This document shows, one piece after another, positions 6,073-21,763 of a DNA stretch of 64,000 nucleotides. The position numbers and the translations under genes were made by a program. The notes below the pieces were generated by a model, which searched no databases, was not told where the DNA came from, and saw only the letters and a list, made by a program, of their open reading frames with translations. This DNA comes from Bdellovibrionales bacterium (lineage in GTDB: Bacteria; Bdellovibrionota; Bdellovibrionia; Bdellovibrionales; CAYMLA01): NCBI GenBank assembly GCA_965217115.1, contig OZ244239.1:1856001-1920000 (forward strand), in the 5' to 3' direction. Positions within the stretch are counted from its first letter, which is position 1; each line of letters starts with the position of its first letter.

Positions 6073-9000
6073 TTGAGAGACTTGTTGAATTTTTTCGATA
6101 AACCGAAGGATCCTTTGTCATTTAATGCAGTACGAGTTTCGTTAGCTTCACCGGGTATGATCAGAGATTGGTCTTTTGGTGAAGTGAAGAAGCCAGAAAC
6201 GATTAATTATCGAACATTTAAGCCAGAAAAAGACGGACTTTTTTGCGCTAAAATTTTTGGTCCGATTAAAGATTACGAATGTCTGTGTGGTAAGTACAAA
6301 AGGATGAAGTATCGCGGAGTGATTTGTGAGAAGTGTGGAGTCGAGGTGACTCAATCCAAGGTTCGTCGTGAGCGTCTGGGACATATTGAATTGGCCGCTC
6401 CTGTGGCACATATTTGGTTCCTACGTTCTCTACCGAGTCGTATCGGAAATCTTTTAAACTTGGCTCTTAAGGATGTTGAGAGGATTCTCTATTGTGAATC
6501 CTATGTGGTTTGGGACCCGATGGAAACGAGTTTGGAAGAGGGACAGATATTAACTGAAACTGCCTATCAAGAGGCGTTGAGTGAGCATGGTCCAAATTTT
6601 AAAGCGGGAATTGGTGGAGACGCCATTCGTGAGTTGTTAAAGAAGATTGATACAGAGTTTTTGGCTCGTCAGTTACGCGTAGAAATTCGTGAGACAAAAT
6701 CAGAGACTCAGACAAAAAAATTGACAAAACGTTTGAAGGTGGTTGAGGCGTTTAGAGGTTCGATCAATAATCCTGACTGGATGATGTTAGATATTTTACC
6801 AGTGTTGCCCCCTGATCTTCGTCCGTTGGTTCCTTTAGATGGTGGACGTTTTGCGACGTCTGATTTGAATGATCTCTATCGTCGTGTGATCAATCGTAAT
6901 AATCGTTTGAAACGTCTTCAGGAGTTAAATGCTCCAGGAATTATTATTCGTAATGAGAAGAGAATGTTGCAAGAGGCAGTGGATGCTCTCTTGGATAATG
7001 GTCGTCGTGGTAAGACTTTTACGGGTCCTAATAAACGTCCTCTACGTTCATTGAGTGATATGTTGAAAGGGAAGCAAGGCCGTTTTCGTCAAAACCTCTT
7101 GGGGAAACGTGTGGATTATTCAGGCCGTTCAGTTATTACGGTGGGTCCGACGTTGAAACTCCATCAGTGTGGTTTGCCTAAGCAGATGGCGTTGGAATTG
7201 TTTAAACCTTTTGTTTATAACAAACTAGAAGAGGGTGGATTTGCCACAACGATCAAACAAGCCAAGCGTTTGGTGGATCAGAAGAGTGTTGAAATTTGGG
7301 ATATTCTCTCGGATGTGGTGAAAGAGCATCCAGTGATGTTGAACCGTGCGCCGACGCTTCATCGTCTTGGTATTCAGGCGTTTGAACCAGTTTTGCATGA
7401 AGGGAAGGCGATTCAGTTGCACCCTCTTGTCTGTACAGCTTTCAATGCCGATTTTGATGGCGATCAGATGGCTGTGCACGTGCCATTATCAGTAGAGGCT
7501 CAAGTTGAGGCCCGTGTATTGATGATGTCGACCAATAATATTTTAAGTCCAGCCAATGGTAAGCCTATTATTAATCCCACTCAGGATATTGTTTTGGGAA
7601 TGTACTGGATGACTCGTATTCGTCCTGGGGCTGAGGGTTCAGGCCGGGTTTTTTCTAATGTGGAAGAGGCTCTCTATGCCTATGAGACGGGAAAAATTCA
7701 TTTACAGGCTAAGTGCAAGGTTCGCATTCAGGGGAAATTAATTGAGACGAGTATAGGCCGTTCTATTTTGTCTGATATTGTTCCAGAAGAAGTGCCTTTT
7801 GATCATATCAATCGCGTGATGACGAAAAAGGAATTGGCCAATTTAATTGATATTTCTTTTCGTGTTGCGGGGGCGAAGGCAACTTGTATCCTTGCTGATC
7901 GAATTAAGGATTATGGATTTAAATACTCAACAACGGCAGGTATCTCTATTTGTTTAGATGATATGATCATCCCTGAGAGTAAAGGAAAACTTCTCGCCGA
8001 TTCTAAAAGTCAGGTTAAAGAGATTCAAGATCAGTACGATGAAGGTCTGATCACTGATGGTGAACGTTACAATAAAGTTGTGGATATTTGGGCACAAACG
8101 GCTGACAAACTCTCTAAAGAGATGATGGCCGGGTTGGAGACAGAGGAATTTGACCTTGGTGATGGTAAGAGAGAAAAGGCTGATAGTTTTAACTCAGTTT
8201 TTATCATGGCGGATTCGGGAGCGAGGGGTTCGGCGGCGCAGATTCGTCAGTTGGCGGCGATGCGTGGTTTGATGGCGAAACCTTCTGGAGAAATTATTGA
8301 AAATCCGATCATAGCAAACTTTCGGGAAGGCTTGTCGGTTCTTGAGTATTTTATTTCCACCCATGGTGCGCGTAAAGGTTTGGCGGATACGGCTTTGAAA
8401 ACGGCGAACTCGGGTTACTTGACCCGTCGTTTGGTGGATGTGGCTCAGGATGTGGTTGTTTCGGAACTTGATTGTGGAACGGGCAGTGGAATTGAGATCA
8501 CTTCATTGGTAGAAGGGGGAGATATTATTCAATCTCTTGGTGATCGTATTTTAGGTCGAACGCTTCTTGAGGATGTCATAGATCCTTATAGTAAAACGTT
8601 ATTACTTGAGGCAGGAACTGAGATTACAGAAAAACATTTACCGATCATTGACAATGCGGCTATTGATTCTGCTCGTATACGCACGGCTCTGACTTGTGAG
8701 TCTCGTCGTGGTGTTTGTGTGAAGTGTTACGGTCGAGATTTAGCTCGGGGGAACACTGTGAATTTAGGGGAGACTGTGGGAATTATCGCAGCTCAATCTA
8801 TTGGTGAGCCGGGAACACAGTTGACAATGAGAACCTTCCATCTAGGTGGAACAGCTTCTCGTTCGGTGGAGAGTTCAGTTCACTCCACTCGCTTTGATGG
8901 AACAGTGAAATTTGAAAACATTATGTTTGTTAAGAACAAGAACGGCAAGTTGACGGTGATGAATCGTAATGGTGACGTTATGATTCTGGACGAGAGTGGT

Positions 9001-10218
9001 CGTGAGCGTGAGAGATTCAAAATGGTTTATGGTGCTATTTTGATGTTTGAAGAAGGGACTAAGGTTTCAAGGGGTGATACGATTGCTGAGTGGGACCCTT
9101 ATACGAATCCGATTGTGACTGAGGTTTCTGGTCGGGTTAAATATGAGGATATCACTGAGGGTGTGACGATGCAGCGTCAGGTGGATCCAGTGACAGGATT
9201 TTCCACGGCAGTCATCATAGAGTCAAAATCAGCCGATATCAAACCAACTCTCTGGTTGGTGGATGAAAAAGGTGAACCGATTAAGTTACCAGGGCGTGAT
9301 ATTCCGGCTCGTTATATTATTCCTGTGGGCTCGCAATTGTTGCCACAAGATGGGGATGATATTCACTCGGGTGATGTCATCGTGAAGATTCATAAAGAGG
9401 CGAGTAAAACTCGTGATATTACGGGTGGTTTGCCCCGTGTGGCTGAGTTGTTTGAGGCGAGAAAGCCAAAAGACGGCGCGATTATTACTGAGATTGATGG
9501 TTATGTGACTTTTGGTAAAGATGTAAAAGGGAAACAGCGTGTTCTGGTGACACCTGAACTCGGTGAACAGCGTGAGTATTTGATTCCCAAGGGGAAGCAT
9601 GTGGCTGTGAGAGAAGGGGAATTCGTTCGTTCTGGTGAGGCGTTAATGGATGGACCGACGAACCCCCATGATGTGTTAAAAGTTTTGGGTGACGAGGCTC
9701 TGGCGGCTTATATGGTGAATGAGGTTCAGGAAGTTTATCGTCTTCAAGGTGTTGGAATAAATGACAAACACATTGAGGTGATTGTTCGTCAAATGATGAG
9801 AAAGGTGGAGGTTCTGGACCCAGGTGATACGACTTTTCTGGCTGGTGAGCATGTGGAAAAAACGACGTTTGCCGATCAGAATGGGAAGGTCATGGGAGAT
9901 GGAGGTCAGGTGGCCACGTCATATCCCCTTCTCTTGGGTATTACAAAGGTCTCTTTAAGTACGGAATCGTGGATTTCGGCGGCCTCTTTCCAGGAGACGA
10001 CAAAGGTGTTAACTGAGGCGGCGATCAACTCTAAGACGGATTCCCTTCGGGGGCTCAAAGAGAACGTAATTATGGGACGTTTGATTCCTGCGGGAACGGG
10101 TGTTCCGTCCTATAAGAGATGGGATATAAATGTGAAAAACCAGGATCAGGAGGCGCCGTCGAGGGCGTTGCCAGGTATGGGCGGGTCGGCAACAGTGAAT
10201 CCAGCGACTTACCCTTAA
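6073..10218 (+). CDS. rpoC: DNA-directed RNA polymerase beta' subunit (TTG start)
   Basis: [12 protein letters not shown] catalytic motif; N-terminal zinc ribbon. Confidence 0.99.
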
Positions 10219-10269
10219 AAAGGGGTGGGTTTCTTTTTTGAGTGTGTCTTCCCATTTTGAGGGAGTTCC

Positions 10270-10298
10270 TTGACGAAATGTGCTTTTTTGTATAGTTT
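10270..10298 (+). promoter_or_regulatory. putative sigma70 promoter for rpsL-rpsG
   Basis: TTGACG at 10270, followed by TATAGT/TAGTTT at 15-17 nt spacing. Confidence 0.45.
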
Positions 10299-10378
10299 GT
10301 GGAACTCTTTGTTTTTGAGGGATTTTTAGAGTAAATAGGAACTAATTTTATTGAGGATGATTTATATGAGAGGAATGA

Positions 10379-10753
10379 ATGCCAACGATTAACCAATTAA
10401 TCAGACAGGGAAGAGACGTTAAAAAGAGAGCGAACAACTCTGCCGCTTTGAAAGCTTGCCCACAAAAGAGAGGGGTTTGTACCCGTGTTTATACAACAAC
10501 ACCTAAGAAGCCAAATTCAGCTTTGCGTAAGGTCGCCCGTGTGCGTTTGTCCAATGGACTTGAAGTGACGTCTTATATTCCAGGTATTGGTCATAACTTG
10601 CAGGAGCACAGTGTTGTTCTGGTTCGTGGTGGTCGGGTGAAAGATTTACCAGGTGTGCGTTTTCACATAGTGCGTGGTGTTCTTGATCTTCAGGGAGTGA
10701 GTGGTCGTCTTCGTGGACGTTCTAAATATGGTGCTAAGAAGCCTAAAAAATAA
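10379..10753 (+). CDS. rpsL: 30S ribosomal protein S12
   Basis: [20 protein letters not shown]. Confidence 0.99.
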
Positions 10754-10773
10754 AAAGGAATAAGGGATAAACA

Positions 10774-11247
10774 ATGTCTAGACGCAGTGGTGCTTTTAAA
10801 AGAGAAATTACCCCAGACCCTGTTTACAATGATGTAACAGTGTCTAAGTTTATTAATAAAATTATGTTAAGTGGCAAGAAGAGTGTTGCTCAAAGTGTTT
10901 TTTATGACGCTCTAGAGGTCATTCGTGAAAAAACCGCCGATGAAGAACCTTTGGAGGTTTTCAAAAAGGCCGTTGATAACTGTAAACCTTCTTTAGAAGT
11001 TCGTTCCCGTCGTGTAGGTGGTTCCACCTATCAAGTTCCAGTGGATGTTCGTCCCACCCGTCGTTTGACATTGTCCATGCGTTGGTTGGTTGATTTCTCC
11101 CGCAAGCGTGGTGAGAGTGGTATGGCCCAGCGTTTGGCAGGAGAGTTGTTGGATGCGTCTAATAATCGTGGGAATGCGATTAAGAAGAAAGAGGACATTC
11201 ATCGGATGGCTGATGCGAATAAGGCATTCGCCCACTACAACTGGTAA
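10774..11247 (+). CDS. rpsG: 30S ribosomal protein S7
   Basis: [23 protein letters not shown]. Confidence 0.99.
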
Positions 11248-11566
11248 TTTTTCTGCAGATAACCTTCGCATTTCTTCGTTGTTGCGTCGGCGCTGTACGC
11301 TTGTACAGCTTTCTCCTTACGCCTTGAACTGCTCGGTTCTCTTTGAAAAAAACATTATTGTATTGGTTAGTCATTAAATACCTCCTAGGATTATTTTTTA
11401 TGAAAAAAACCATAGCTGGGTCATGACCCAGAAGTTAAAGGGGGATTTGTGAGAGGGGATATATTCACGCTTGGGTGATTCAATTTTGGTTTATAGAATT
11501 GAGATATGAAGCTGAAGGTGTAGAACTCTGGTAGATAATTATATTATTTCTAGAGATATTTTTAAA

Positions 11567-12148
11567 TTAGGACATGCTGCTAAAGATCCATGAAAATAGA
11601 ATGGAAAATTTAACAAAAAGGATACTAATCACAAGTATAATTACCCCAGATGAATAAAGAGTTATAGAGATTAGAGATTTTCCCAAGCTTTTTAGTGCCT
11701 CTAAAATCTTGTTGTCTTTGTCGTCATTATTCTCATTTGTCTCTTCTTCATCTAATTTTAATGCAGCAACTGGAATTATATAGGAGAGATCTATATTTTC
11801 AATATTAAAATTACTGTTATTTTTATCTTTATTCATACTCTGTAAAGCCATAAGAATTATTTGAGAGATATTTTTTCTACTATCGTCATCAATGACTCTA
11901 GTATTTCCCCCCATATAATTAGAATGCTTTTTCAGTTCTTCCACGACCTCTTTACCTATGCTGGTATTTTCAAATTTTAGGAATAAAGAATTTAAAAATA
12001 AGTTTTTATTTTTTTCAAAGAGTTCTTGAGTGTGTTGATTATAAAGTTTTTGCATCTCTTCCAGATTTCTTTCGATTCCCAAGACCGAATAAGCATTCAA
12101 AAAAACGAAAAATTCACTGATGATAGCTGACAGGGTAAAGCAGAACAT
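11567..12148 (-). CDS. hypothetical membrane protein (hydrophobic N- and C-termini)
   Basis: 193-aa AT-rich ORF with a long C-terminal hydrophobic segment; no recognisable motif. Confidence 0.55.
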   Translation of the reverse strand: MFCFTLSAIISEFFVFLNAYSVLGIERNLEEMQKLYNQHTQELFEKNKNLFLNSLFLKFENTSIGKEVVEELKKHSNYMGGNTRVIDDDSRKNISQIILMALQSMNKDKNNSNFNIENIDLSYIIPVAALKLDEEETNENNDDKDNKILEALKSLGKSLISITLYSSGVIILVISILFVKFSILFSWIFSSMS

Positions 12149-12365
12149 CCAAAGAATAGGGCCTTATCCCGAGATGCTTGAGATAGAATTATAATTGATT
12201 AGAAATAGCACCAATGATGTTGAGTAAATTAGTAAGGAATTTTTTGAAAGAGAATAAGATGATTTCGTTATTAAATGGCTAAAGTGGGTTATTATTTCTA
12301 ATGTAAAGATATCTGCATTTATATCAGCAAGGGCAGTGTTAAGGTCGCTCTTTAGGCTCATGCTT

Positions 12366-13313
12366 TCAAACCTCGTTATTGCTTATAAGTTGTATAGCCC
12401 TGTTTTTTAATTCATTAGAGATATTTTTTTTAAGATTAATATATTTTTCTTTCCCTTCAATTTCTCGTGCCACTTGTACTTTCCCCTGTATAGACTTTAA
12501 ACAAGTAGAAGAGAGTTTAGTTAAGTCCTTATTGACAGCCCTTAGGGGGCTAAAAATTTCTTTTTTTAAGCTATGCTTTGTTGAGTGTTTTCCATTGTGA
12601 ATAACATTACCTGTTACAACTTTAGGACTGTTTTCATCAAAGTATCTTGTTTTCTTCTTTTTCACCTTAATCTCATGCTTTTTGAGCACTGTTCGGATTA
12701 AAGAATCAAGTTTTCTATCAATCCGATAACTTTTGGAGAAGGTCATGTCATCGACATAGAGAGTAAACTTCATTCCTTCCTGTTTTGATAAAGATTGTAT
12801 TTCATCGAAAATAGGTTTATGCATCCAAAAAGCCAGTACAGGGCTTACTGGGCTTCCAGTTGGTAGATAGCCATCTTTAAATATCAAGTCACAAAGAAAC
12901 CAAGATGTATCGGCATTAATTTTTAGGTAATGGTGGAAGAACCTGAAGCCGTACTCAGTCTTACAAGTTGGGAAAAAATTATCAATATCCATGTTTATTA
13001 GGTGTTTGGCTTCAAGGTGAAACTGTGCATTTTTTATATAACTTTCCCCTTTACATGATTTCAGGTAATTAGGTGGTTGAATCTGAGAAAGCAAACTTGC
13101 TAGAATATCATGAAGTTTTCTTAACTTTCCTATTGGTACAGTCGTTAGGCGCACTTTGCCTTTTTTGTCCTTGATGGTCCCATTTTTGAAAAGTTTATTT
13201 CTATCTTTCCAAATAGATTCAAGCTCTTTTCTACTCATGCTAAAAATCTTAGCAAGAAGTCCTTTTCCTTTTAAACAGTATAGTCTATGCTTTTCTTTCT
13301 GTACTAGAGTCAT
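12366..13313 (-). CDS. retron-type reverse transcriptase (type VI-like)
   Basis: Retron region X NAQFH (NAxxH), DIDNFF, LPTGSPVSP, catalytic YVDD, region Y VTG; 315 aa with no maturase or other fused domain. Confidence 0.92.
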   Translation of the reverse strand: MTLVQKEKHRLYCLKGKGLLAKIFSMSRKELESIWKDRNKLFKNGTIKDKKGKVRLTTVPIGKLRKLHDILASLLSQIQPPNYLKSCKGESYIKNAQFHLEAKHLINMDIDNFFPTCKTEYGFRFFHHYLKINADTSWFLCDLIFKDGYLPTGSPVSPVLAFWMHKPIFDEIQSLSKQEGMKFTLYVDDMTFSKSYRIDRKLDSLIRTVLKKHEIKVKKKKTRYFDENSPKVVTGNVIHNGKHSTKHSLKKEIFSPLRAVNKDLTKLSSTCLKSIQGKVQVAREIEGKEKYINLKKNISNELKNRAIQLISNNEV

Positions 13314-13599
13314 TAGAGACCTTTTCTACGAATTGGAGAAATTTAAGTATAGATTTACGGAAGAACTCAGGAGTTTTAAATTTTGGATCAGCACTATCAA
13401 GTTGTTCATTAAAAAACATGATAGATGACACCTCGAGGTTAAATATGTTTGCATATTTTTCAATAAGCTTAAGATTTGGCCTTCTTTTATTCGTTTCCAC
13501 TTCAGACAGAAAACCTGGTGAGATTTTTAGTTCTCTGGCCAAGTGGGTTAATTTCTTATCATGATAAACACGAATCAGTCGTAAAGCTTCTCCAATCAT
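13285..13599 (-). CDS. XRE/Cro-C1 HTH protein, retron-associated
   Basis: ALRLIRVYHD...LARELKISPGFLSEVETNKRRP HTH; overlaps the RT start; AGGAG-type RBS. Confidence 0.9.
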   Translation of the reverse strand: MIGEALRLIRVYHDKKLTHLARELKISPGFLSEVETNKRRPNLKLIEKYANIFNLEVSSIMFFNEQLDSADPKFKTPEFFRKSILKFLQFVEKVSNDSSTERKA

Positions 13600-13618
13600 T
13601 TTCCTCTCCTAAAAAAAT

Positions 13619-14030
13619 TAGACTTGGTTAGTCACCTCGACTCCCCCAGAAAAGGTCTATAACGAAAAAAACAACTCTAAGGATTAACTTTCGATACTTC
13701 CTTAAAAATTGTCGTCCTTTCTGGTAGGCACTCGGGGTAACACAAAACTGCGGTATTCTTCTTCTTATCTTCATAAAAAGACCTCTCTTTGTTATGAAGA
13801 GCTTTATTGCTCTCCTCCCTTGAACAAAGAGATCGTTCGCAAATTTGCATCACCAAGTCTACTTTAAGCACGAGAATTCCCTTTCTCGTGCGGCCTTGGG
13901 GAGTATAATGTCTAAGTAGCTTAGTTAATAAATTACTTAGTCACAATAGGTTTGGCCCCAAGAAGCCTAGTGTTTCCACTAGTCACAGGTACACTTTTTG
14001 TGTACCCCCTTTAATAAGGGAATCCCTATT
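13619..14030 (-). ncRNA. putative retron RNA (msr-msd-like 5' domain plus a 3' domain embedding the small ORF)
   Basis: Stems at 13988-14006, 13967-13982 (GAAA tetraloop), 13895-13962, 13868-13891 and 13768-13800; 10-bp inverted repeat 13619-13628/13852-13861. Confidence 0.7.
13628..13774 (-). CDS. small 48-aa cationic/hydrophobic protein, putative retron effector (absent from ORF track)
   Basis: Manual translation MKIRRRIPQFCVTPSAYQKGRQFLRKYRKLILRVVFFVIDLFWGSRGD*; GAGAGG SD 7 nt upstream of ATG; directly upstream of HTH-RT. Confidence 0.72.
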   Translation of the reverse strand: MKIRRRIPQFCVTPSAYQKGRQFLRKYRKLILRVVFFVIDLFWGSRGD

Positions 14031-14371
14031 GAATACATCATTATAATTGCAGGTTTTTATCTAAGCTTCAAGAATAAAATTCACCTATAGAAGAATAATG
14101 CGTTAAGTTATGGGAGAATGGTAATATTGCCTTCTTAATATTCTAAAAGAAGAAATATAATTGGAGTTTTTTTTGGGCGAGGCTTGTTCGGGATAACCCA
14201 AATGATAGTCTCATTTAGAAAATAGATTTTTTTCTTTATAGATTTAATCAAACTTCAAGGAGTCGTTTTAAGTTGGCATTTAGGGCTTAGGCTAATCTTT
14301 CAGCAACAGCCCTGGTGATTTTTCTTGCGCTACTTTCGTATTTAGAGCCTCTCTACCTGTTCTTACTTTTT

Positions 14372-17080
14372 TTAAAATTTGGTAACAAATGACTTAAAAT
14401 GATCAATATTCCGAGAGTCTGTGATTTCATCATGAGGAATTAGAAGGTATGCCCAAGGCTTCTTACCATGCTTTTTAGCAAAATCACTTGCTGCACTACA
14501 ATATTCTTGAGCTGCCCTTGCTTTTTCTATTACGTCAGGGCTTTTAAGTTCATTCTTTGCTTTAATTTCCACGAGATAATGATGGGCTTCCGTTTCAACA
14601 ACAAAATCAGGTTCATACAGCCTTGAGTGGTGATCCCAATAAATATTAAATTGCTTAATTGAGGGTCTAAGCCATTTTAAAACTTTCTCATCTTCATCAA
14701 GAAGTGAAGCAAATGCTTTCTCTGGTAAAGAATCAAATTTATAAATAGTATGGCATGATTTCTTATAAAAATCGAAAACCCTTTTTGTTAGTTCCGCTTT
14801 TGTCGCAACATGATCTCTAGAGTCATAAATTTTATCCTCTTTGAACTTGCTATAGTTATGGTTTTCAATTCTTGTAAATGGCTTAATCTGCGCGTCCTCA
14901 AACTTACCAGTCTTACAATAAAATTTTTCCATCATCTGAGCATAGATAAATTCAGCTATCTTAACTCTATAATACTGAATGACATTATCTATTTCAGAGT
15001 CTTTTGAAAGATAAGATTTAAAATGTGCCAAGGCTTCGTCACTAAGTTGGTAAAGTAAATCTCCATGCTCATCATAATCAATTTCATCATAATTCAATAA
15101 CTCTGACACGATTGTCTTAAGCCAACTTTGCTCACCAGAGGAGCTATCGTTTGTCATAGAGTGGGTAAGTGTCTTTTTTTGATCTTGTAGATAACGCACA
15201 AAAATCTCTTCTTCAATAGGCGGAAACTTTGCCATTGTACTGGTATCGAGGTTGAATTTTTTAAAGCCAAATTCAGTGTCATTTTTTAGTTGAATAGTGA
15301 TTCTTGGTATCTCTATTGTATTTTCAATAATTGATTCAATTATTTTTTTATATTTCTCCTCAAAGACTTCATCTACCTGAACATCTTCGAGGTTAATAGA
15401 TAAAACTCCCTGAGATATTTTCTTTTTTATAGCTTTTTTTAATTTATCTTTAACTTCTGCTTTTGATAAATCTTCAATATTGGTTACATTATCGCTATTG
15501 AAGCAGCTTTCAAATAATTCCTTCTCCACTAAAAGCTTATCTGTTTCAACTTTCTTTTCTAATTCATCGTCGATAGTCTCAATTTCAACGGCTCTTTGAA
15601 TAAATTTCTCCTCTACTGGAGTAACAGCTGGAACAACCTCTTGATTCTTCTTGAAAATGTCATCATCAGAATCAATAAAGTATTGTTTCATTACTATAGA
15701 GTTAGGGTCATTAGCTTTTTTAATCAAGTCTTCAAAACTTTCATGGGCCATAACAGTTAAGGTATCAACCTCTGGAACTCCTGTAATTTCACCATATGGA
15801 AGCCGCAATCCCCTCCCCAGTGTTTGCTCTGTGAGAATATTGGCCGCGAATGAACGAAGAGGAACAATTGTGTAAAGGTTAGTCACGTCCCAGCCTTCTT
15901 TTAGCATATTACAATGAATTACTATTTCAAATTCATTCTTAGGGTCTTCTAGCTCTAAAAGCTTTTGAATATTTTCTTCTTTTTCAGTTCCCCTTTGATT
16001 AGAGTGAATCTCAAAGACCTTAGCCGCATATTGTCCATTACAAAAAGATTCAGATTGAATCAGTGAACGAAGTTCCTCAGCATGCTTAGTATCTTGAGCC
16101 ACAACTAAAACAAAAGGGCGAACTAATGGTTTTTTATGATTTCGAGCGTATATTTCAAGATTTGTTTTTGTTATCTCATGCACATGCATAGCATCTGATA
16201 ACTTCATTTTATCAAGCCCCTCGGGTGACAAATCTTTAAGCTGTTTTTTTGTGAGATTTTTCCTCGTTGCCGCTGCGGGCTCTTTAACAAAGCCATCTTT
16301 AATTGCATGGGCCAGTGTGTACTCATATACAATGTTTTTAAAGGGGACACCTTTGGTTGATGTAGGAGTTGCTGTTAGTTCTAAGCCCAAGATCGGTTTC
16401 AACTCATTTAGAACTTCCATGGCCCTAGATGCTCTATAGTGATGAGACTCATCCATTAACAAAACAAGGTCTTCAGTATTTTGTAAAAATTGAAAATAAG
16501 ACTCTCCAAAGTATTCAGAAATTCTTCTAATCTTTGGAGATTTCCCTCCTCTTGCTTCAGAATTTATTTTTGAGATATTAAAAATATTTATGATGACCTC
16601 ATCTGAAAAAAGGGGGGTTTGACCAAAGCGATCTAGAGAAGTTTTTTTTACCGTATTAGTTCTTAAATAATTATCACCAGTGATAACTTTTGGTTCAATC
16701 TGTATCCCCTTAAAAACATATTTAGGATGGGTGTTTCTACTAAAATCAATAATCAATTTATTATAAATGGTTAAGTTAGGAGCCAAAACTAAAAAATTTC
16801 TCAAGCCTTTTTCTTTATAAAGATAGCTGATAAAAGCTCCCATAAGCCTAGTCTTTCCTACTCCTGTTGCTAGAGCAAAAGCTACTGAAGGAAAGCCACG
16901 TTCAAAATTAATTAGCTTGTCAAACTCTCCACACCTTTTAAATGTTAATAAAGCGTCATCTAATTTTATATTTTTATTTAATTCAATACTTGAAATGAGT
17001 TTTGATAATATTTCAAGACTCTCCCTTTGTGGCTTTCTCAAGCTTAATCTTTGGTTTACATAATTGATATTTGAACTCAT
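14372..17080 (-). CDS. res: type III restriction enzyme Res subunit (SF2 helicase + PD-(D/E)xK nuclease)
   Basis: ATGVGKT, DESHHY, LTATP, LKEGWD, QTLGRGLR; C-terminal YEPDF...VEIK. Confidence 0.88.
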   Translation of the reverse strand: MSSNINYVNQRLSLRKPQRESLEILSKLISSIELNKNIKLDDALLTFKRCGEFDKLINFERGFPSVAFALATGVGKTRLMGAFISYLYKEKGLRNFLVLAPNLTIYNKLIIDFSRNTHPKYVFKGIQIEPKVITGDNYLRTNTVKKTSLDRFGQTPLFSDEVIINIFNISKINSEARGGKSPKIRRISEYFGESYFQFLQNTEDLVLLMDESHHYRASRAMEVLNELKPILGLELTATPTSTKGVPFKNIVYEYTLAHAIKDGFVKEPAAATRKNLTKKQLKDLSPEGLDKMKLSDAMHVHEITKTNLEIYARNHKKPLVRPFVLVVAQDTKHAEELRSLIQSESFCNGQYAAKVFEIHSNQRGTEKEENIQKLLELEDPKNEFEIVIHCNMLKEGWDVTNLYTIVPLRSFAANILTEQTLGRGLRLPYGEITGVPEVDTLTVMAHESFEDLIKKANDPNSIVMKQYFIDSDDDIFKKNQEVVPAVTPVEEKFIQRAVEIETIDDELEKKVETDKLLVEKELFESCFNSDNVTNIEDLSKAEVKDKLKKAIKKKISQGVLSINLEDVQVDEVFEEKYKKIIESIIENTIEIPRITIQLKNDTEFGFKKFNLDTSTMAKFPPIEEEIFVRYLQDQKKTLTHSMTNDSSSGEQSWLKTIVSELLNYDEIDYDEHGDLLYQLSDEALAHFKSYLSKDSEIDNVIQYYRVKIAEFIYAQMMEKFYCKTGKFEDAQIKPFTRIENHNYSKFKEDKIYDSRDHVATKAELTKRVFDFYKKSCHTIYKFDSLPEKAFASLLDEDEKVLKWLRPSIKQFNIYWDHHSRLYEPDFVVETEAHHYLVEIKAKNELKSPDVIEKARAAQEYCSAASDFAKKHGKKPWAYLLIPHDEITDSRNIDHFKSFVTKF

Positions 17081-17107
17081 AATTTACCCTTAAACTTCCG
17101 TCCCCAT

Positions 17108-18766
17108 TTATAAGTCTTCTTGAATTGGCTCTATGATATTGAGGCTATAATCATCTTTTCCAAACTCACAACGACCAAGTAACATTTGTGGAATTTTCTT
17201 AAGAGTTATATTTGGATATTTGTCTTTTTTAACTCTAAAAGCCTTTGCACATATTAAAAGAAATTCATTTTCTGACATTTGGCTATAAATTCTATCTAAA
17301 TGTTCAGAGGTTAAAAATTGAGTAGTAACAAAGATAAAATCTTTTTCAGATGAAAATCCTTGTTTCCAGTAAACAGTTTCATTTGGATAAAACTTAAATT
17401 TTTCATGCTTACATACTGCCTCTGACAACTGTATTGCATTATATTCTTTATTAATAACCCAATTTCCTCGATCATCTTTTTGCAATAAGCTTGGAGCAAG
17501 ATCATAAAATGTAAAACCACTCCCCCCATTCCAGTTCATAATTTTGGTAATTCCACTCGCATCCTTTCCTTTTACAACATTAGACAATCTTTTATGACAA
17601 TGTGAAAATGAATGATCTCTTAATTCTATACCAATCCACTTTCGATTCATCTTGTGAGCAACACTAGCAGTAGTTCCTGATCCTAAAAATGAATCAAGAA
17701 CCCAATCCCCTTCTTCCGTGCTCATATCCAGGCAACGCTTAATTAATAATTCAGGTTTTTTTCCATTAGGAAAGCTAACATCACCTTCTTTGTGTAAATT
17801 GTTTGATAATAAATCATCCCAAATTGTTGATAAAGCTTGTCCTGTTACGTACCTATTATTTATGAACTTAATTTTGCTGCTATAGAAAAGAAGTTGCTCG
17901 CCATTTAAAAAATAGTGATCAGGCTTTCCATCTCGTTCACATCTATAAACCTTATCAGCATTTTTTCTTGATAAGTCTAAAAATTCCCGAGCATCTGAAC
18001 TTACATCCTTATCTTTAATTCTAGCGGTACGAACAACGCGCTGAGGCTCCTTCAACACAAAGTCATTAAACTTATTCTCAAGTTCATCTTCATATTTTTT
18101 CTTAAGCTCTTTCTGTTTGCAGTGTAAATTTTTTGCCAATGCGGATCTTAAAGTGACTAGATTCCAATTTTCAAAGGACTCATCATAATTTTCAATATAC
18201 TTGGAGTAGCGACTGTCCCTATCAGTTTCAGTAAATGTTTTGAATGACTTCCATTTACTTTTATCTTTTGCGTAGACAAGGATATAATTCGCTGTAGATA
18301 CTAGTCCCGGGTTTACTGCTTTTGGCCCAGAAACCGAACTTTGTTTAAAAGTTACCATCGAAACTCTATTTGAACGGCCAAATATTTCATCAGTTAGTAC
18401 ACATAAATATGCAAATTCATTATCATCTATGTGAATAAAGAGAGTCCCTGATTCATGCATTAGGGAATGAATAATCTCCAGACGGGACTTCATCATTGAG
18501 AGCCAAATTGAGTGCTCAACTCCATCATCGTAATGCTCAAAAGCTTGTTGTGTATTAAAAGGAGGGTCTATATACACACATTGAATTTTTTCTTTAAAAC
18601 CGCTCTCTAAAGCTTTCAATGCGAGTAGGTTATCTCCATGAATTAACATATTTTCACTTTTTGTGCCCTCTGATTTCTCATCAATTGGCATAAGTATTCT
18701 TGGCTCCAGAATGGAAGTATCATCTTTCCCAACCCAATCTAACTCTAATCTTTGCTTATAGCTCAT
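17108..18766 (-). CDS. mod: type III R-M DNA methyltransferase Mod subunit
   Basis: IHGDNL, catalytic DPPF, SAM-binding DSFLGSGTT (beta-class order); adjacent to res. Confidence 0.9.
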   Translation of the reverse strand: MSYKQRLELDWVGKDDTSILEPRILMPIDEKSEGTKSENMLIHGDNLLALKALESGFKEKIQCVYIDPPFNTQQAFEHYDDGVEHSIWLSMMKSRLEIIHSLMHESGTLFIHIDDNEFAYLCVLTDEIFGRSNRVSMVTFKQSSVSGPKAVNPGLVSTANYILVYAKDKSKWKSFKTFTETDRDSRYSKYIENYDESFENWNLVTLRSALAKNLHCKQKELKKKYEDELENKFNDFVLKEPQRVVRTARIKDKDVSSDAREFLDLSRKNADKVYRCERDGKPDHYFLNGEQLLFYSSKIKFINNRYVTGQALSTIWDDLLSNNLHKEGDVSFPNGKKPELLIKRCLDMSTEEGDWVLDSFLGSGTTASVAHKMNRKWIGIELRDHSFSHCHKRLSNVVKGKDASGITKIMNWNGGSGFTFYDLAPSLLQKDDRGNWVINKEYNAIQLSEAVCKHEKFKFYPNETVYWKQGFSSEKDFIFVTTQFLTSEHLDRIYSQMSENEFLLICAKAFRVKKDKYPNITLKKIPQMLLGRCEFGKDDYSLNIIEPIQEDL

Positions 18767-18775
18767 AATATCCCC

Positions 18776-21763
18776 TTAAATGATTTTCCACTTTATTTTT
18801 ATTATATTCTTTTCTTTATGTTCTAATTTCATTCGTTTTTCAATATCTTCAATTAAATGTTCTTTTTCTTTTTCAATACGATCTTGTTCTTCAAAAAGCT
18901 TTCTTCTCATGTTATTTCTCTTCTTCTCAAGATTTTTTGCTACTCTCTGCGCCTTAACTTTTTTATCTAAAAGGCTGATATTTTTTGAATCTTTCTTTAT
19001 TTTCTTAATCTCCTTATCAAGTTCTTTAATCTCGATCTCAAGACCCTCTTTAATGTCTTCGCTCCATTTATCTAATTTTTCAGACTCCTCGATAAAGAAT
19101 GAATGATTGCGTTTTTCAATTTCCTTTAAATACAAAGACGTTGTCTGATCTTTAATTTTAAAAAGACTTTGTTCTACCTGTTTAGAAGTTTCGTCATTAC
19201 AAGATGAGACAGAAGCATTAATGTTGAACATTTTTCGAATTACTTCTGCTGGCACGTCATCTCCATCTTTAGTTATACCAACGTATACCATCTCTTCACT
19301 ATGATCTAATGAATTAACATTAAGCAAGCAGATTTCTAGCCAGCCAGATTGACCAATATATTCCTCTAAAGCTGTTATTTTATTTTCATAAGAAGATAAA
19401 TCAAACGTCAGGCTAGCTAATTCGAGCTGGGAAGATTTTGCGTTCTCGATAACTCTCTGGCCAAGCGGATGGTTTAACCTATAGCTATGTGAATCACCCT
19501 CTCTTTCTTGGCCTTTAGAGATCATTTTATATGCCCCAAGCTTGTATTGACCGGGAGAAATCTCTGAAAATGGGGATTTTTTTAACTCAAAAGAATAATT
19601 TGAATCGTCGAAATCAGCATATTCATTTAGCGTGTTCTTTGTCAGGTTCCAAAACATATTAGAGACATTATCCACCCTTTTTTCTGCTTCATCTAACTGC
19701 ATTTTTAATTTTGAATGAACATCTTCATCAAATTTCTTTAAAACAATATTCTTTGTTTTGCTTAATTTTTCTGAAATTTGTTTAGAAGAAGATATTTGTA
19801 GGTTCTCAAAGGCCTCACTAATTTCCTCTTCAGTTCGACAGGACATATATATCTTTAAAATTCTCTTTTCAATATCGTGACCGTCTATAATATCACCAAG
19901 TACTTCGTCACTTGCACCAAATGCTCCACGAAATAAATTGAACTTTTCCTGCAAGAGTTCTAAAATTCTCAAGTCAGCAATGTTTTTGGTATTTACAAAA
20001 TTAACCACTATTACGTCTAATTTTTGACCATACCTATGACAACGACCTATTCGTTGTTCAATCCGTTGTGGGTTCCATGGCAAATCATAGTTAATTAAAA
20101 GGTTACAAAATTGTAAATTAAGCCCTTCCGAGCCAGCTTCAGTTGTGAGAAAAATTTTTTTGACCTCTTTAAACTGCTTAACGAGAAACCTTCTTTCTTC
20201 TGCTCCTCCTGAATCACCATTAAATATTACGACTTCATTCTCTACATCTATTCCCATCTCTGACAGCCTTCTCATAATGTAGCCCTGGGTTGATCTAAAT
20301 TCAGTAAAGATAACGGCTTTTTCTGGCCAACCTTCATGTCGTGCCTTTTCAAATTGTTGGGTTAAAGCATTTACCAAGGCATCGGCTTTTTTATTTTGCT
20401 TGATTTCCAAACTCAGAACAATCATTTTCAAAATAATTTCTGATTCTTCCTGAATCTCTTCAGAACTGAACAGCGTTGTTGCTTCTTCAGGATTCTGAGA
20501 GTTTTCTATATCTTGATCTGAATAATTCTCTTTAACCTCACCTTCTTCTTCAGAAACCTCCTCAACAGGAGTGTTACTTTTAAAAGATTTTTTCAAGCCT
20601 TCATAATTTTTTGAAATAAGGTCAGCAAAGAGTTTTTTCTCAAATTTCTCTAGTGCTTCTGATTTTCTCCCATCATCAAGAGTTAAGCTTTGAGTAATAC
20701 TGTCTAATAAACTATTAAATAGGGTCTCATTGTCAATAGAAACGGTTGCCAAAAGAAGCCTTTTATATAAATTTAAAAGGCTGTTTTTTATCGCAAAGGT
20801 TGAGCTTGCAATAAGTTTTAAGTAAACAAGTGTTAACAATGGAAGGGCCGAGGCAGGAATAGAGATAAGAGTTTCTCTTCTTAGGAAGATTTCAAAGCTG
20901 ATCCTCAGTTCTTCTTCATAGTCTGTAGGGTCATAGGTAAAAGTAACGGTCTTTCTGTTGGTATAATTAATATATTCAAGAACATTTTTTCTAAGTTCTC
21001 TTCTAAAGAAATTTTTCATTCGACTTTGTAGCTCTATCATTTGACCCTCACGAACAGAGTCAGACAAATTACAAAAAAGACTTTGAAAGCTTTCTCTTGT
21101 TCCTAAAATGTATTCATCAACAAAGCTTGTGAGTCCATAAAGCTCCATTAGGTGATTTTGCATAGGAGTCGCGGTTAAAAGTAATTTTTTAAATGGCTGA
21201 AGAGTGTCTTTGATACGTTTAGCACGCTTTGCTTCCTTTTTTCCTTTTTTCCATACATTTCTCAATTTATGAGCTTCATCTATAACAATTAAATCCCATG
21301 CTTCCTTTTTAATAATTTCATGATAGCTATCTACAGAATGTTCATTTGTAATAATTATTTTTTCTTCTCTATTTAGTGGGGTTTCTTTTTCTGGATTATT
21401 TATTTTCTTAAAATCTTGCCCTGCCATGATTTCACTGTCTAAAAAGAAGAGATTTGATAATTCATCTTTCCATTGATGGCGAAGTGACTTAGGAGCGATG
21501 ATTAAAAATGATCTCTTCCCCTCAGCCCATAGCTGTGAAAGAACAAGACCTGCCTCAATTGTTTTTCCAAGGCCAACTTCGTCAGCTAAAATACATCCTT
21601 TACTCAAAGGGTTCTTCAAAGCAAATATTGCTGCATTTATTTGATGAGGATTTAGGTCAATACAGGCATCAAACATTGCCTGAGAAAGACGATTAACTGA
21701 ATCTCCAGCTTGAAGCAGTGATAATTCATGTGCGAATAATTTAGCGTGGTAGTTAGTGTTCAA
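18776..21763 (-). CDS. SNF2-family helicase/ATPase with C-terminal coiled coil
   Basis: LADEVGLGKT, DEAH, TATP, NYDLPWNPQRIEQRIGRCHRYGQ. Confidence 0.9.
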   Translation of the reverse strand: MNTNYHAKLFAHELSLLQAGDSVNRLSQAMFDACIDLNPHQINAAIFALKNPLSKGCILADEVGLGKTIEAGLVLSQLWAEGKRSFLIIAPKSLRHQWKDELSNLFFLDSEIMAGQDFKKINNPEKETPLNREEKIIITNEHSVDSYHEIIKKEAWDLIVIDEAHKLRNVWKKGKKEAKRAKRIKDTLQPFKKLLLTATPMQNHLMELYGLTSFVDEYILGTRESFQSLFCNLSDSVREGQMIELQSRMKNFFRRELRKNVLEYINYTNRKTVTFTYDPTDYEEELRISFEIFLRRETLISIPASALPLLTLVYLKLIASSTFAIKNSLLNLYKRLLLATVSIDNETLFNSLLDSITQSLTLDDGRKSEALEKFEKKLFADLISKNYEGLKKSFKSNTPVEEVSEEEGEVKENYSDQDIENSQNPEEATTLFSSEEIQEESEIILKMIVLSLEIKQNKKADALVNALTQQFEKARHEGWPEKAVIFTEFRSTQGYIMRRLSEMGIDVENEVVIFNGDSGGAEERRFLVKQFKEVKKIFLTTEAGSEGLNLQFCNLLINYDLPWNPQRIEQRIGRCHRYGQKLDVIVVNFVNTKNIADLRILELLQEKFNLFRGAFGASDEVLGDIIDGHDIEKRILKIYMSCRTEEEISEAFENLQISSSKQISEKLSKTKNIVLKKFDEDVHSKLKMQLDEAEKRVDNVSNMFWNLTKNTLNEYADFDDSNYSFELKKSPFSEISPGQYKLGAYKMISKGQEREGDSHSYRLNHPLGQRVIENAKSSQLELASLTFDLSSYENKITALEEYIGQSGWLEICLLNVNSLDHSEEMVYVGITKDGDDVPAEVIRKMFNINASVSSCNDETSKQVEQSLFKIKDQTTSLYLKEIEKRNHSFFIEESEKLDKWSEDIKEGLEIEIKELDKEIKKIKKDSKNISLLDKKVKAQRVAKNLEKKRNNMRRKLFEEQDRIEKEKEHLIEDIEKRMKLEHKEKNIIKIKWKII

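Follow-up and report, generated by a model that had tools for sequence, protein, structure and literature searches.

We analyzed a 64,000-nucleotide (nt) stretch of the genome of a Bdellovibrionales bacterium (contig OZ244239.1; hereafter the window, to whose full length all positions refer), which carries a retron element read on the minus strand. In the direction of reading, the element consists of a structured non-coding stretch (about 14030-13775), a small open reading frame (ORF) denoted SP, a helix-turn-helix (HTH) protein gene, and a reverse transcriptase (RT) gene (Table 1). The RT matched the PADLOC family RT_VI (E-value 1e-71, across positions 11-290 of its 315 amino acids [aa]), with RT_III-A as the second type (4.7e-42), and Pfam RVT_1 (2.6e-12); its matches to retron RTs of NCBIfam were all below the threshold. 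The YVDD motif of this protein is invariant across an alignment of 34 RTs (alignment A1). SP had no match in Pfam, PADLOC, or NCBIfam, and an Rfam scan of 11000-15000 in E-value mode returned 0 matches. In the classification of Mestre et al. 2020, used here in its PADLOC implementation, Type VI is recognized by the RT clade, an HTH gene directly upstream of or overlapping the RT gene, and a small ORF upstream of the HTH gene, all of which are found here. Judging from these sequence features, the locus is a Type VI retron with the canonical SP-HTH-RT layout. The subject of this analysis is the RNA around the SP start codon, which we regard, with moderate confidence, as a translational riboregulator (“arm 2”) of a Type VI retron hybrid RNA that would keep a toxin ORF silent at rest and would be released by multicopy single-stranded DNA (msDNA).

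Table 1. Features of the retron element, in window coordinates (IR, inverted repeat; MFE, minimum free energy structure; SD, Shine-Dalgarno sequence; SL, stem-loop).
Feature	Position	Strand	Basis or remark
Long imperfect stem-loop, candidate msd (reverse-transcription template)	13892..13967	-	MFE; positional analogue of the msDNA stem-loop in the available description of Retron-Vpa2
9-bp hairpin GCACGAGAA/UUCUCGUGC, candidate template of the msDNA 5' stem-loop	13868..13891	-	MFE
Direct-repeat copy 1, AAGGGA	13878..13883	-	Loop of the 13891-13868 hairpin
IR1, 5' arm of the long-range closing stem	13852..13861	-	10 bp with 13628-13619 in the MFE
SL1 (fold B), SD-sequestering stem-loop	13784..13832	-	Pair probabilities 0.88-1.0
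Direct-repeat copy 2, AAGGGA	13816..13821	-	5' internal loop of SL1; 62 nt downstream of copy 1
Fold A, alternative 14-bp hairpin, SD in loop, AUG in stem	13768..13800	-	-12.4 kcal/mol in context, -11.6 kcal/mol isolated
SD core GAGG of SP	13782..13785	-	7 nt 5' of the AUG
SL2, UCUUUUUAU-GAAG-AUAAGAAGA, holding the AUG (13774-13772)	13760..13781	-	Pair probabilities 0.76-0.99
SP small ORF, 48 aa, candidate toxic effector	13628..13774	-	Basic N-terminal part, hydrophobic C-terminal part
IR2, 3' arm of the closing stem, at the SP stop codon	13619..13628	-	MFE
Cro/C1-type HTH protein, 104 aa	13285..13599	-	PADLOC HTH_VI 6.9e-28; Pfam HTH_3 1.4e-06
Retron reverse transcriptase, 315 aa, YVDD motif	12366..13313	-	29-nt overlap with the HTH gene

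Two sets of helices can form over the ribosome-binding site (RBS) of SP and its start codon. In the hairpin denoted fold A, UCUUCAUAA pairs with UUAUGAAGA (13800-13792 with 13776-13768) and AAAGA with UCUUU, which gives 14 pairs with one bulged C around a GAGG tetraloop that is the SD core itself. In SL1, the fold B of an earlier note on this DNA, an anti-SD arm, UCUCUUUGUU (13832-13823), forms 10 perfect pairs with AACAAAGAGA (13793-13784), an arm that lies beside and within the SD, and these pairs enclose a 7-bp inner hairpin, GGAGAGC-AAUAAA-GCUCUUC (13815-13809 with 13802-13796); the outer and inner helices together amount to -19.1 kcal/mol. The U-rich spacer and the AUG, once released by fold B, pair with SP codons 2-5 to form SL2, whose arms are 13781-13773 and 13768-13760, codons 2-5 making up the 3' arm. 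Fold A is incompatible with the inner hairpin of SL1, with its 3' arm, and with SL2. The earlier note had presented folds A and B as mutually exclusive states, with A holding translation off and B allowing it after a trigger. Both helices are present on the minus strand as that note described them, their pairing positions confirm that they exclude each other, and part of the SD is indeed paired in fold B (13793-13784 paired, the two G at 13783-13782 free). The claim that fold B frees the AUG was not borne out by folding, in which SL2 pairs its A and U.

These structures are stable by the standards of the surrounding DNA. Among 33-nt segments from both strands of the 64-kb window, 118 of 18,278 reach the stability grade of fold A; among 49-nt segments, that of fold B is reached by 31 of 11,628, and the stability of the whole 81-nt element is matched or beaten in 85 of 7,520 segments of its length. 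The folding z-score is -4.4 for the 81-nt element and -6.5 for the strongly structured region 13619-14060. When base pairs were permuted within the ground-state helices, a hairpin of fold A grade arose in 0.2% of 5,000 trials.

The MFE consists of fold B plus SL2 in each context that was folded (86, 243, and 441 nt). The best structure containing fold A lies 5.8 kcal/mol above it, and the pair probability of fold A is 0.0. In simulated growing transcripts, the outer helix of SL1 reaches a probability of 0.96 once the transcript extends to 13784, and fold A peaks at 0.10. Thus, folding of 13619-13861, which the earlier note had named as a check, upheld a strongly structured RNA (z -6.7) with fold B, but not a populated fold A: the thermodynamic model predicts a single dominant state, in which pairing takes up most of the SD as well as the A and U of the AUG, and of the two conformers only one is accessible in it.

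We next turn to relatives of the element. Besides an identical entry, the closest RT among 5.8 billion proteins is 37% identical (best of 80 matches). A profile built from the 34 RTs retrieved 80 loci in species-representative genomes, with RT identities of 27-38%. An HTH gene lies directly upstream of the RT gene in 75 of these 80 loci, and in 72 of the 75 the HTH gene is preceded by a candidate small ORF whose product is basic in its N-terminal and hydrophobic in its C-terminal part. The SP of the window aligns with the small ORFs in the same position at eight loci (L002, L005, L008, L011, L020, L022, L031, and L042), and the core common to all nine resembles RxLWKHRK followed by a hydrophobic stretch. 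Across the whole set (L001-L080), the SPs fall into several unrelated-looking clusters that track host groups, namely, Lachnospiraceae, Oscillospiraceae with relatives, sphingomonads, and a mixed group to which the window belongs; all of these clusters retain the RNA design.

The arrangement over the SP start recurs across these loci. Counts were made over 68 loci, omitting five with doubtful start codons (L023, L026, L037, L071, and L078), and, for alignments, over 48 loci plus the window (49 sequences) that remained after removal of near-duplicates with more than 90% ungapped identity. The SD is paired with upstream sequence (mean probability above 0.5) at 57 of 68 SP starts, compared with 28 of 68 HTH starts of the same loci and with 17 of 68 SP starts after shuffling of the upstream 84 nt. 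A local hairpin contains or adjoins the start codon at 56 of 68 SP starts versus 18 of 68 HTH starts. By eye, the design is found in unrelated sequences: after a pyrimidine anti-SD arm come an internal loop, an inner hairpin that varies in length, and the SD arm, and a small hairpin at the AUG follows. For 20 loci of another, readily alignable SP cluster, to which the window does not belong, RNAalifold predicted an upstream hairpin together with the outer and inner helices of SL1, and 17 of the 19 predicted pairs show compensatory change. A covariance model built from this cluster (R1) placed its top match within 11000-16000 of the window at 13741-13901 on the minus strand, which is the correct place; over the 80 loci it gave 28 matches at E-values of at most 0.001, practically all from one cluster, and did not reach the other clusters.

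Fold A, on the other hand, has no counterpart in these relatives. Of the 68 loci, 1, that of the window, has its SD and AUG covered by a local hairpin of -12 kcal/mol or better, and a limit of -8 kcal/mol is reached in 8 of 68. On the MAFFT alignment of the 49 sequences (A2), the fold A positions are paired in 36.3% of cases versus 36.2% after shuffling, and 234 of 500 shuffles score as high. The conservation of helices in homologs, which the earlier note had proposed as a second check, therefore held for the fold B type and failed for fold A: with the nearest RT 37% identical, only one of the two conformers is conserved. We conclude that the architecture of fold B plus SL2 is conserved across the family and that fold A is not.

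These results bear on the switch proposed earlier, in which fold A would be the off state and fold B the on state with a freed AUG. Several observations speak for such a scheme: both folds are present and mutually exclusive, fold A is unusually stable both among the segments of the window and against the pair-permuted nulls, the placement of the SD as a tetraloop with the AUG in the stem looks purposeful, and blocking of the 5' side of SL1 (13832-13814) makes a truncated fold A the MFE. However, fold B with SL2 is favored energetically and forms first during transcription, the AUG within it is held by SL2, and a hairpin of fold A grade is peculiar to one locus with pairing at the shuffled level in the alignment. 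Considering that fold B is what the family conserves for sequestering the SD, it is a feature of the off state, so that the roles of the two folds appear to be reversed relative to the earlier assignment. We regard the original two-state scheme as very improbable.

Fold A itself is, in the folding model, a real but thermodynamically disfavored hairpin peculiar to this locus. If formed, it would be a second off state that re-sequesters the SD and AUG while the 5' side of SL1 is occupied; it may act as a further lock in this lineage or be without function. A different explanation assigns it no role in RNA at all, as a by-product of sequence tracts (the SD, the U-rich spacer, and the Lys/Arg codons) or as a 33-bp palindromic operator for the HTH protein. 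The region is indeed of low complexity, such that the U-rich spacer can pair either with codons 2-5, as in SL2, or with the A-rich flank of the SD, as in fold A. Yet the pair permutation described above keeps the composition of the tracts and seldom recreates such a hairpin, so that fold A is not a mere by-product of the purine and pyrimidine tracts. As an operator, the palindrome has in its favor that it is unique in the window, where 0 are expected, and that a Cro/C1-type HTH protein is encoded next door. Against this, half-sites with at most one mismatch number 44, compared with 32.4 ± 6.2 expected (4 of 100 shuffles reach 44), which is no clear enrichment; none of them lies in 13850-14200, where the promoter would be; the SP starts of relatives carry no comparable palindrome; and the HTH protein of Retron-Vpa2 was pulled down with RT and hybrid RNA, DNA binding being unreported in the accessible text of that study (bioRxiv 10.1101/2025.10.22.683967). 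Altogether, we hold an origin of fold A outside RNA function to be improbable.

The riboregulator is embedded in a larger predicted structure. The MFE of 14040-13600 comprises, in order, two small hairpins, the long stem-loop, the 9-bp hairpin, a long-range stem, the riboregulator stem, and a structured SP arm. The riboregulator is closed by a stem between 13848-13838 and 13752-13742, and the long-range stem formed by IR1 and IR2 encloses both the riboregulator and the entire SP ORF. Across the family, duplexes between the two arms of the same locus average -24.5 kcal/mol versus -17.8 kcal/mol for arms from different loci, and 0 of 10,000 permutations reach the observed sum. Thus, the long-range closing stem is a family feature with a locus-specific sequence. 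Relatives also possess an equivalent of the 13868-13891 hairpin, with a locus-specific repeat. By analogy with the known systems, the long stem-loop is the part that would be reverse transcribed, and the production of msDNA from the upstream non-coding RNA (ncRNA) is putative in the same sense.

Some further features were noted at the two ends of this RNA. The RBS region of the HTH gene (13615-13601) pairs in the MFE with 14022-14008, near the 5' end of the structured RNA. By eye, a perfect TATAAT was found at 14045-14040 on the minus strand, about 20 nt upstream of the first hairpins, with TTGAAG at 14071-14066, 20 nt above it; as a promoter, the TATAAT would set the 5' end of the RNA near 14033. 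A promoter and terminator scan of 12300-14400 gave no minus-strand promoter-like site at its threshold, the TATAAT/TTGAAG pair going uncalled because its spacer falls outside 16-18 nt.

The two loops of this RNA are linked by a direct repeat. The AAGGGA of the 9-bp hairpin recurs in the 5' internal loop of SL1, at a spacing that fits the family mode of about 61-63 nt, most family distances being 57-66 nt. For the loop-restricted test of such repeats, 72 loci were used (4 of 76 were omitted for a short upstream flank). A word of at least 7 nt from the hairpin loop recurs 45-85 nt downstream in 48 of the 72 loci, compared with 18, 8, 5, and 8 of 72 at four control offsets. Starting from the other side, 19 of 49 loci have, 40-100 nt upstream of a fixed 8-nt segment of the SL1 internal loop, a match to at least 7 of its 8 letters; the rate in cross-locus pairs is 2.7%, and 0 of 10,000 permutations reach the observed sum. 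A broader test, for the longest common word of the segments -190 to -88 and -88 to -8, did not discriminate (7.0 within loci and 6.3 across loci). The 20-locus cluster has 16 different repeat words, and the longest word common to the two copies averages 6.7 nt within a locus versus 4.63 nt across loci (0 of 20,000 permutations). The word thus differs from locus to locus and is equal in both copies, as in CCGGGAG, CUGGGAG, CAGGGAG, CACAGGAG, UGGAUGG, AGGAUGG, UGUGAGAG, and AGAGUGA. In only 4 of 28 loci does the RNA contain the reverse complement of the repeat at another place, so that a complement would have to come from a copy such as complementary DNA (cDNA). A co-varying direct repeat that lacks an RNA complement is what would be expected if the cDNA of one site pairs with its counterpart; alternatively, both sites may be read by a protein.

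Several observations touch on the repeat without forming part of these tests. A third AAGGG stretch, at 14021-14004, resembles the anti-SD arm of SL1 together with the repeat (13830-13813) in direct orientation, and the cDNA of about this stretch (~14021-14004) forms the best 24-nt duplex with the riboregulator, at about -19 kcal/mol, the overall complementarity not exceeding that of shuffled sequences. An SD-like run, GGGAGGAG, at 13812-13819 on the minus strand shares positions with repeat copy 2 and with the 5' arm of the inner hairpin of SL1 and has no start codon after it; it could be a decoy or a standby site. In many relatives, too, the repeat is purine-rich and SD-like (GGGAG, GGAGG). 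At L011, whose SP is among those most similar to that of the window, the SL1-loop word has its best match about 100 nt upstream, in a different hairpin (by eye, about 11 of 12 letters, in 2290-2520), off the usual distance of about 62 nt.

The combination of features described so far closely parallels Retron-Vpa2, a Type VI retron of Vibrio parahaemolyticus (Zhang et al., bioRxiv 10.1101/2025.10.22.683967). According to the available description, its hybrid RNA (hyRNA) of about 470 nt has three arms and is closed by inverted repeats, two stem-loops contain the RBS and the start codon, and direct repeats of 7 nt are located one in an msd loop and one in a riboregulator loop. The msDNA of 86 nt, of which a 23-nt 5' stem-loop is required, is described there as necessary, and when supplied in trans as sufficient, for SP translation; its authors left open how msDNA releases translation. 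The HTH protein was recovered with RT and hyRNA, and the accessible text reports no binding to DNA. A literature search for “hyRNA” with “retron” found only this preprint. Hence, the suggestion of the earlier note that RNA structure holds back translation of the toxin until RT-derived DNA releases it corresponds to what has been demonstrated experimentally for Retron-Vpa2.

The element of the window shares with Retron-Vpa2 the SP-HTH-RT order, a template arm and SP ORF joined in one predicted structured RNA that inverted repeats close, an RBS and AUG in two predicted stem-loops, and a short direct repeat with one copy in a template-arm loop and the other in a riboregulator loop; in the template arm, a long stem-loop likewise appears to precede a small hairpin of about 23-24 nt. 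The predicted fold accordingly displays the three arms with inverted repeats, the two stem-loops, and the loop-loop repeat of a Vpa2-type RNA, and all structural points that could be compared agree, Retron-Vpa2 being available as a description and not as a sequence; the RT of the window is at most 37-38% identical to any relative found. There are also differences. The repeat of the window has 6 nt and that of Retron-Vpa2 7 nt; the Vpa2 repeats are called highly conserved in sequence in the available description, whereas the word varies across the present loci; and an extra hairpin like fold A is found in the window only, being unmentioned in the accessible account of Retron-Vpa2.

On this basis we propose the following scheme. 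A single structured transcript would run from about 14030 to about 13600 on the minus strand, both ends being approximate, and would comprise an msr-msd-like arm (14022-13868), the riboregulator (13848-13742), and the remainder of the 48-aa ORF, closed by 13861-13852 with 13628-13619. At rest, SL1 would pair most of the SD region with the upstream pyrimidine arm, and SL2 would pair the start codon with codons 2-5. By analogy with Retron-Vpa2, the trigger would be the accumulation of msDNA, whose 5'-hairpin loop would be the complement of the AAGGGA at 13883-13878. This loop could pair with the AAGGGA of the SL1 internal loop (13821-13816) and so destabilize SL1. Ribosomes would then load on the opened RNA, the toxin would be made, and the infected cell would stop growing; the toxicity of SP is assumed here by analogy with Retron-Vpa2 and Retron-Sen3. 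Docking of the msDNA on the SL1 loop is suggested by the covariation of the repeat, not by extended complementarity.

A number of observations weigh against this scheme. All occupancy figures are thermodynamic predictions, and even in these the two free G of the SD and the G of the AUG, which sits in the SL2 loop, make the occlusion of SD and AUG partial. When the repeat alone (13822-13814) is blocked in the model, SL1 and SL2 stay intact, and when the whole 5' side (13832-13814) is blocked, the truncated fold A that becomes the MFE still buries the AUG; the AUG is thus buried under either form of blocking, so that the model has no obvious on state and leaves the step from docking to opening unexplained. 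The 6-nt repeat of the window is by itself not above chance, shared words of 6-7 nt being common across loci, and in a search for extended complementarity between the cDNA of 14060-13862 and the riboregulator, 87% of 300 shuffles were equal or better. The conservation tallies include related loci and automated start calls, so that the family counts are not independent events. On alignment A2, the ground-state pairs are paired in 40.5% of cases versus 37.9 ± 0.8 after shuffling (0 of 500 as high), but controls slid along the alignment reach 39.5-46.7%, and because these are equally high no clear ground-state signal emerges. The match of R1 to the element of the window is weak (7.7 bits, E-value 0.24). 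Finally, predicted RBS sequestration coexists with constitutive production of SP in Retron-Sen3, as far as the available text of the respective study describes it (bioRxiv 10.64898/2026.04.27.721009).

Retron-Sen3 represents the most substantial competing explanation. In this system, the accessible text reports, single-stranded DNA and SP are both constitutive and the HTH protein neutralizes SP post-translationally, independently of RT and ncRNA (Garcia-Rodriguez et al., bioRxiv 10.64898/2026.04.27.721009). Its SP RBS is predicted to be sequestered, the SP coding region lies within a conserved RNA framework, alternative conformations of the RBS region are discussed, and binding to the HTH protein is ascribed to an amphipathic C-terminal extension of SP; the system belongs to the cl2075 lineage of Beta- and Gammaproteobacteria (same preprint). 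So described, Retron-Sen3 shares with the window the SP-HTH-RT layout, the predicted sequestration of the SP RBS, the IR1-IR2 stem flanking the SP ORF, and the predicted pairing of the HTH RBS with a 5' segment (13615-13601 with 14022-14008 in the window).

If the element of the window worked in this way, the RNA would be mainly a scaffold for RT and HTH, and SP would be made constitutively, neutralized by HTH, and freed when a phage interferes with a host pathway. The shared layout and predicted sequestration combined with constitutive SP in Retron-Sen3 fit such control, as do the partial occlusion of the SD and the lack of a clear on state in the folding model of the window. Post-translational control, however, gives no reason for a repeat that co-varies between the hairpin loop and the SL1 loop in the relatives. 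Furthermore, the SP of the window ends, by eye, 5 residues past its hydrophobic stretch, in contrast to the SP of Retron-Sen3 with its C-terminal extension (the cl2075 SPs being known from description only), and the cl2075 lineage is proteobacterial whereas the nearest relatives of the window come from other phyla. A prediction of an HTH-SP complex (alignments A6 and A5) scored 0.29 against a mark of 0.32 and counts neither way. Because the same architecture operates under protein-level control in Retron-Sen3, the regime at this locus is undecidable from sequence alone; nevertheless, weighing the repeat against the shared layout, we consider a Sen3-like regime unlikely here and prefer msDNA-released translational control.

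Taken together, the earlier interpretation is partly supported: its general idea of toxin translation controlled at the level of RNA, and possibly released by DNA from the RT, is probably right, and its assignment of the states is wrong. Given that the toxin mRNA is built like the Vpa2 hybrid RNA, the finding is largely explained by two 2025-2026 preprints; the RNA-level logic is already known from them, and the locus is a distant new example.

The control proposed for this locus also has counterparts outside retrons. Type I toxin-antitoxin mRNAs and toehold switches feature a small hydrophobic toxin ORF whose SD and AUG are locked in hairpins, long-range pairing of the 5' and 3' regions, and a short complementary nucleic acid that acts on a loop and alters translation. 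In the present case, the proposed trans-acting molecule differs from these in being a DNA made by the RT from the same RNA as template, and, unlike in type I toxin-antitoxin systems, the proposed trigger would activate translation and no antisense RNA gene is evident.

The genomic surroundings are those of a defense island. Directly upstream of the retron, at 14372-21763 on the minus strand, lie three genes, whose products are a ResIII-family enzyme of 902 aa, an N6/N4 DNA methylase of 552 aa, and an SNF2/helicase protein of 995 aa, and considering that these adjoin the retron, it is part of a defense island, which is inserted after rpoC, rpsL, and rpsG (6073-11247). Directly 3' of the RT gene, on the same strand, are two ORFs of 65 aa (12361-12164) and 193 aa (12148-11567), neither of which has a Pfam or PADLOC match of meaningful E-value.

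The two-hairpin riboregulator, the closing stem, and the paired repeat hold over 49-72 loci from many phyla. Of these, the family-wide covariation of the repeat is the by-product of most interest, as comparative evidence for a base-pairing contact between msDNA and riboregulator. A more far-reaching and tentative idea, to which we give less credence than to msDNA-released control as such, is that the repeat is a locus-specific address code that makes the msDNA a private key for the toxin mRNA of its own retron, and that the window carries a double lock or three-state switch (SL1 with SL2, fold A, and open) with a higher activation threshold. If this is true, base pairing would bring the loop of the msDNA 5' hairpin onto the riboregulator of the retron that made it, and in the window fold A would re-capture the SD and AUG once the 5' side of SL1 has opened. 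The window is a natural variant with an extra, unusual hairpin over the SD and AUG and, as such, could serve to probe how the firing threshold of these retrons is tuned.

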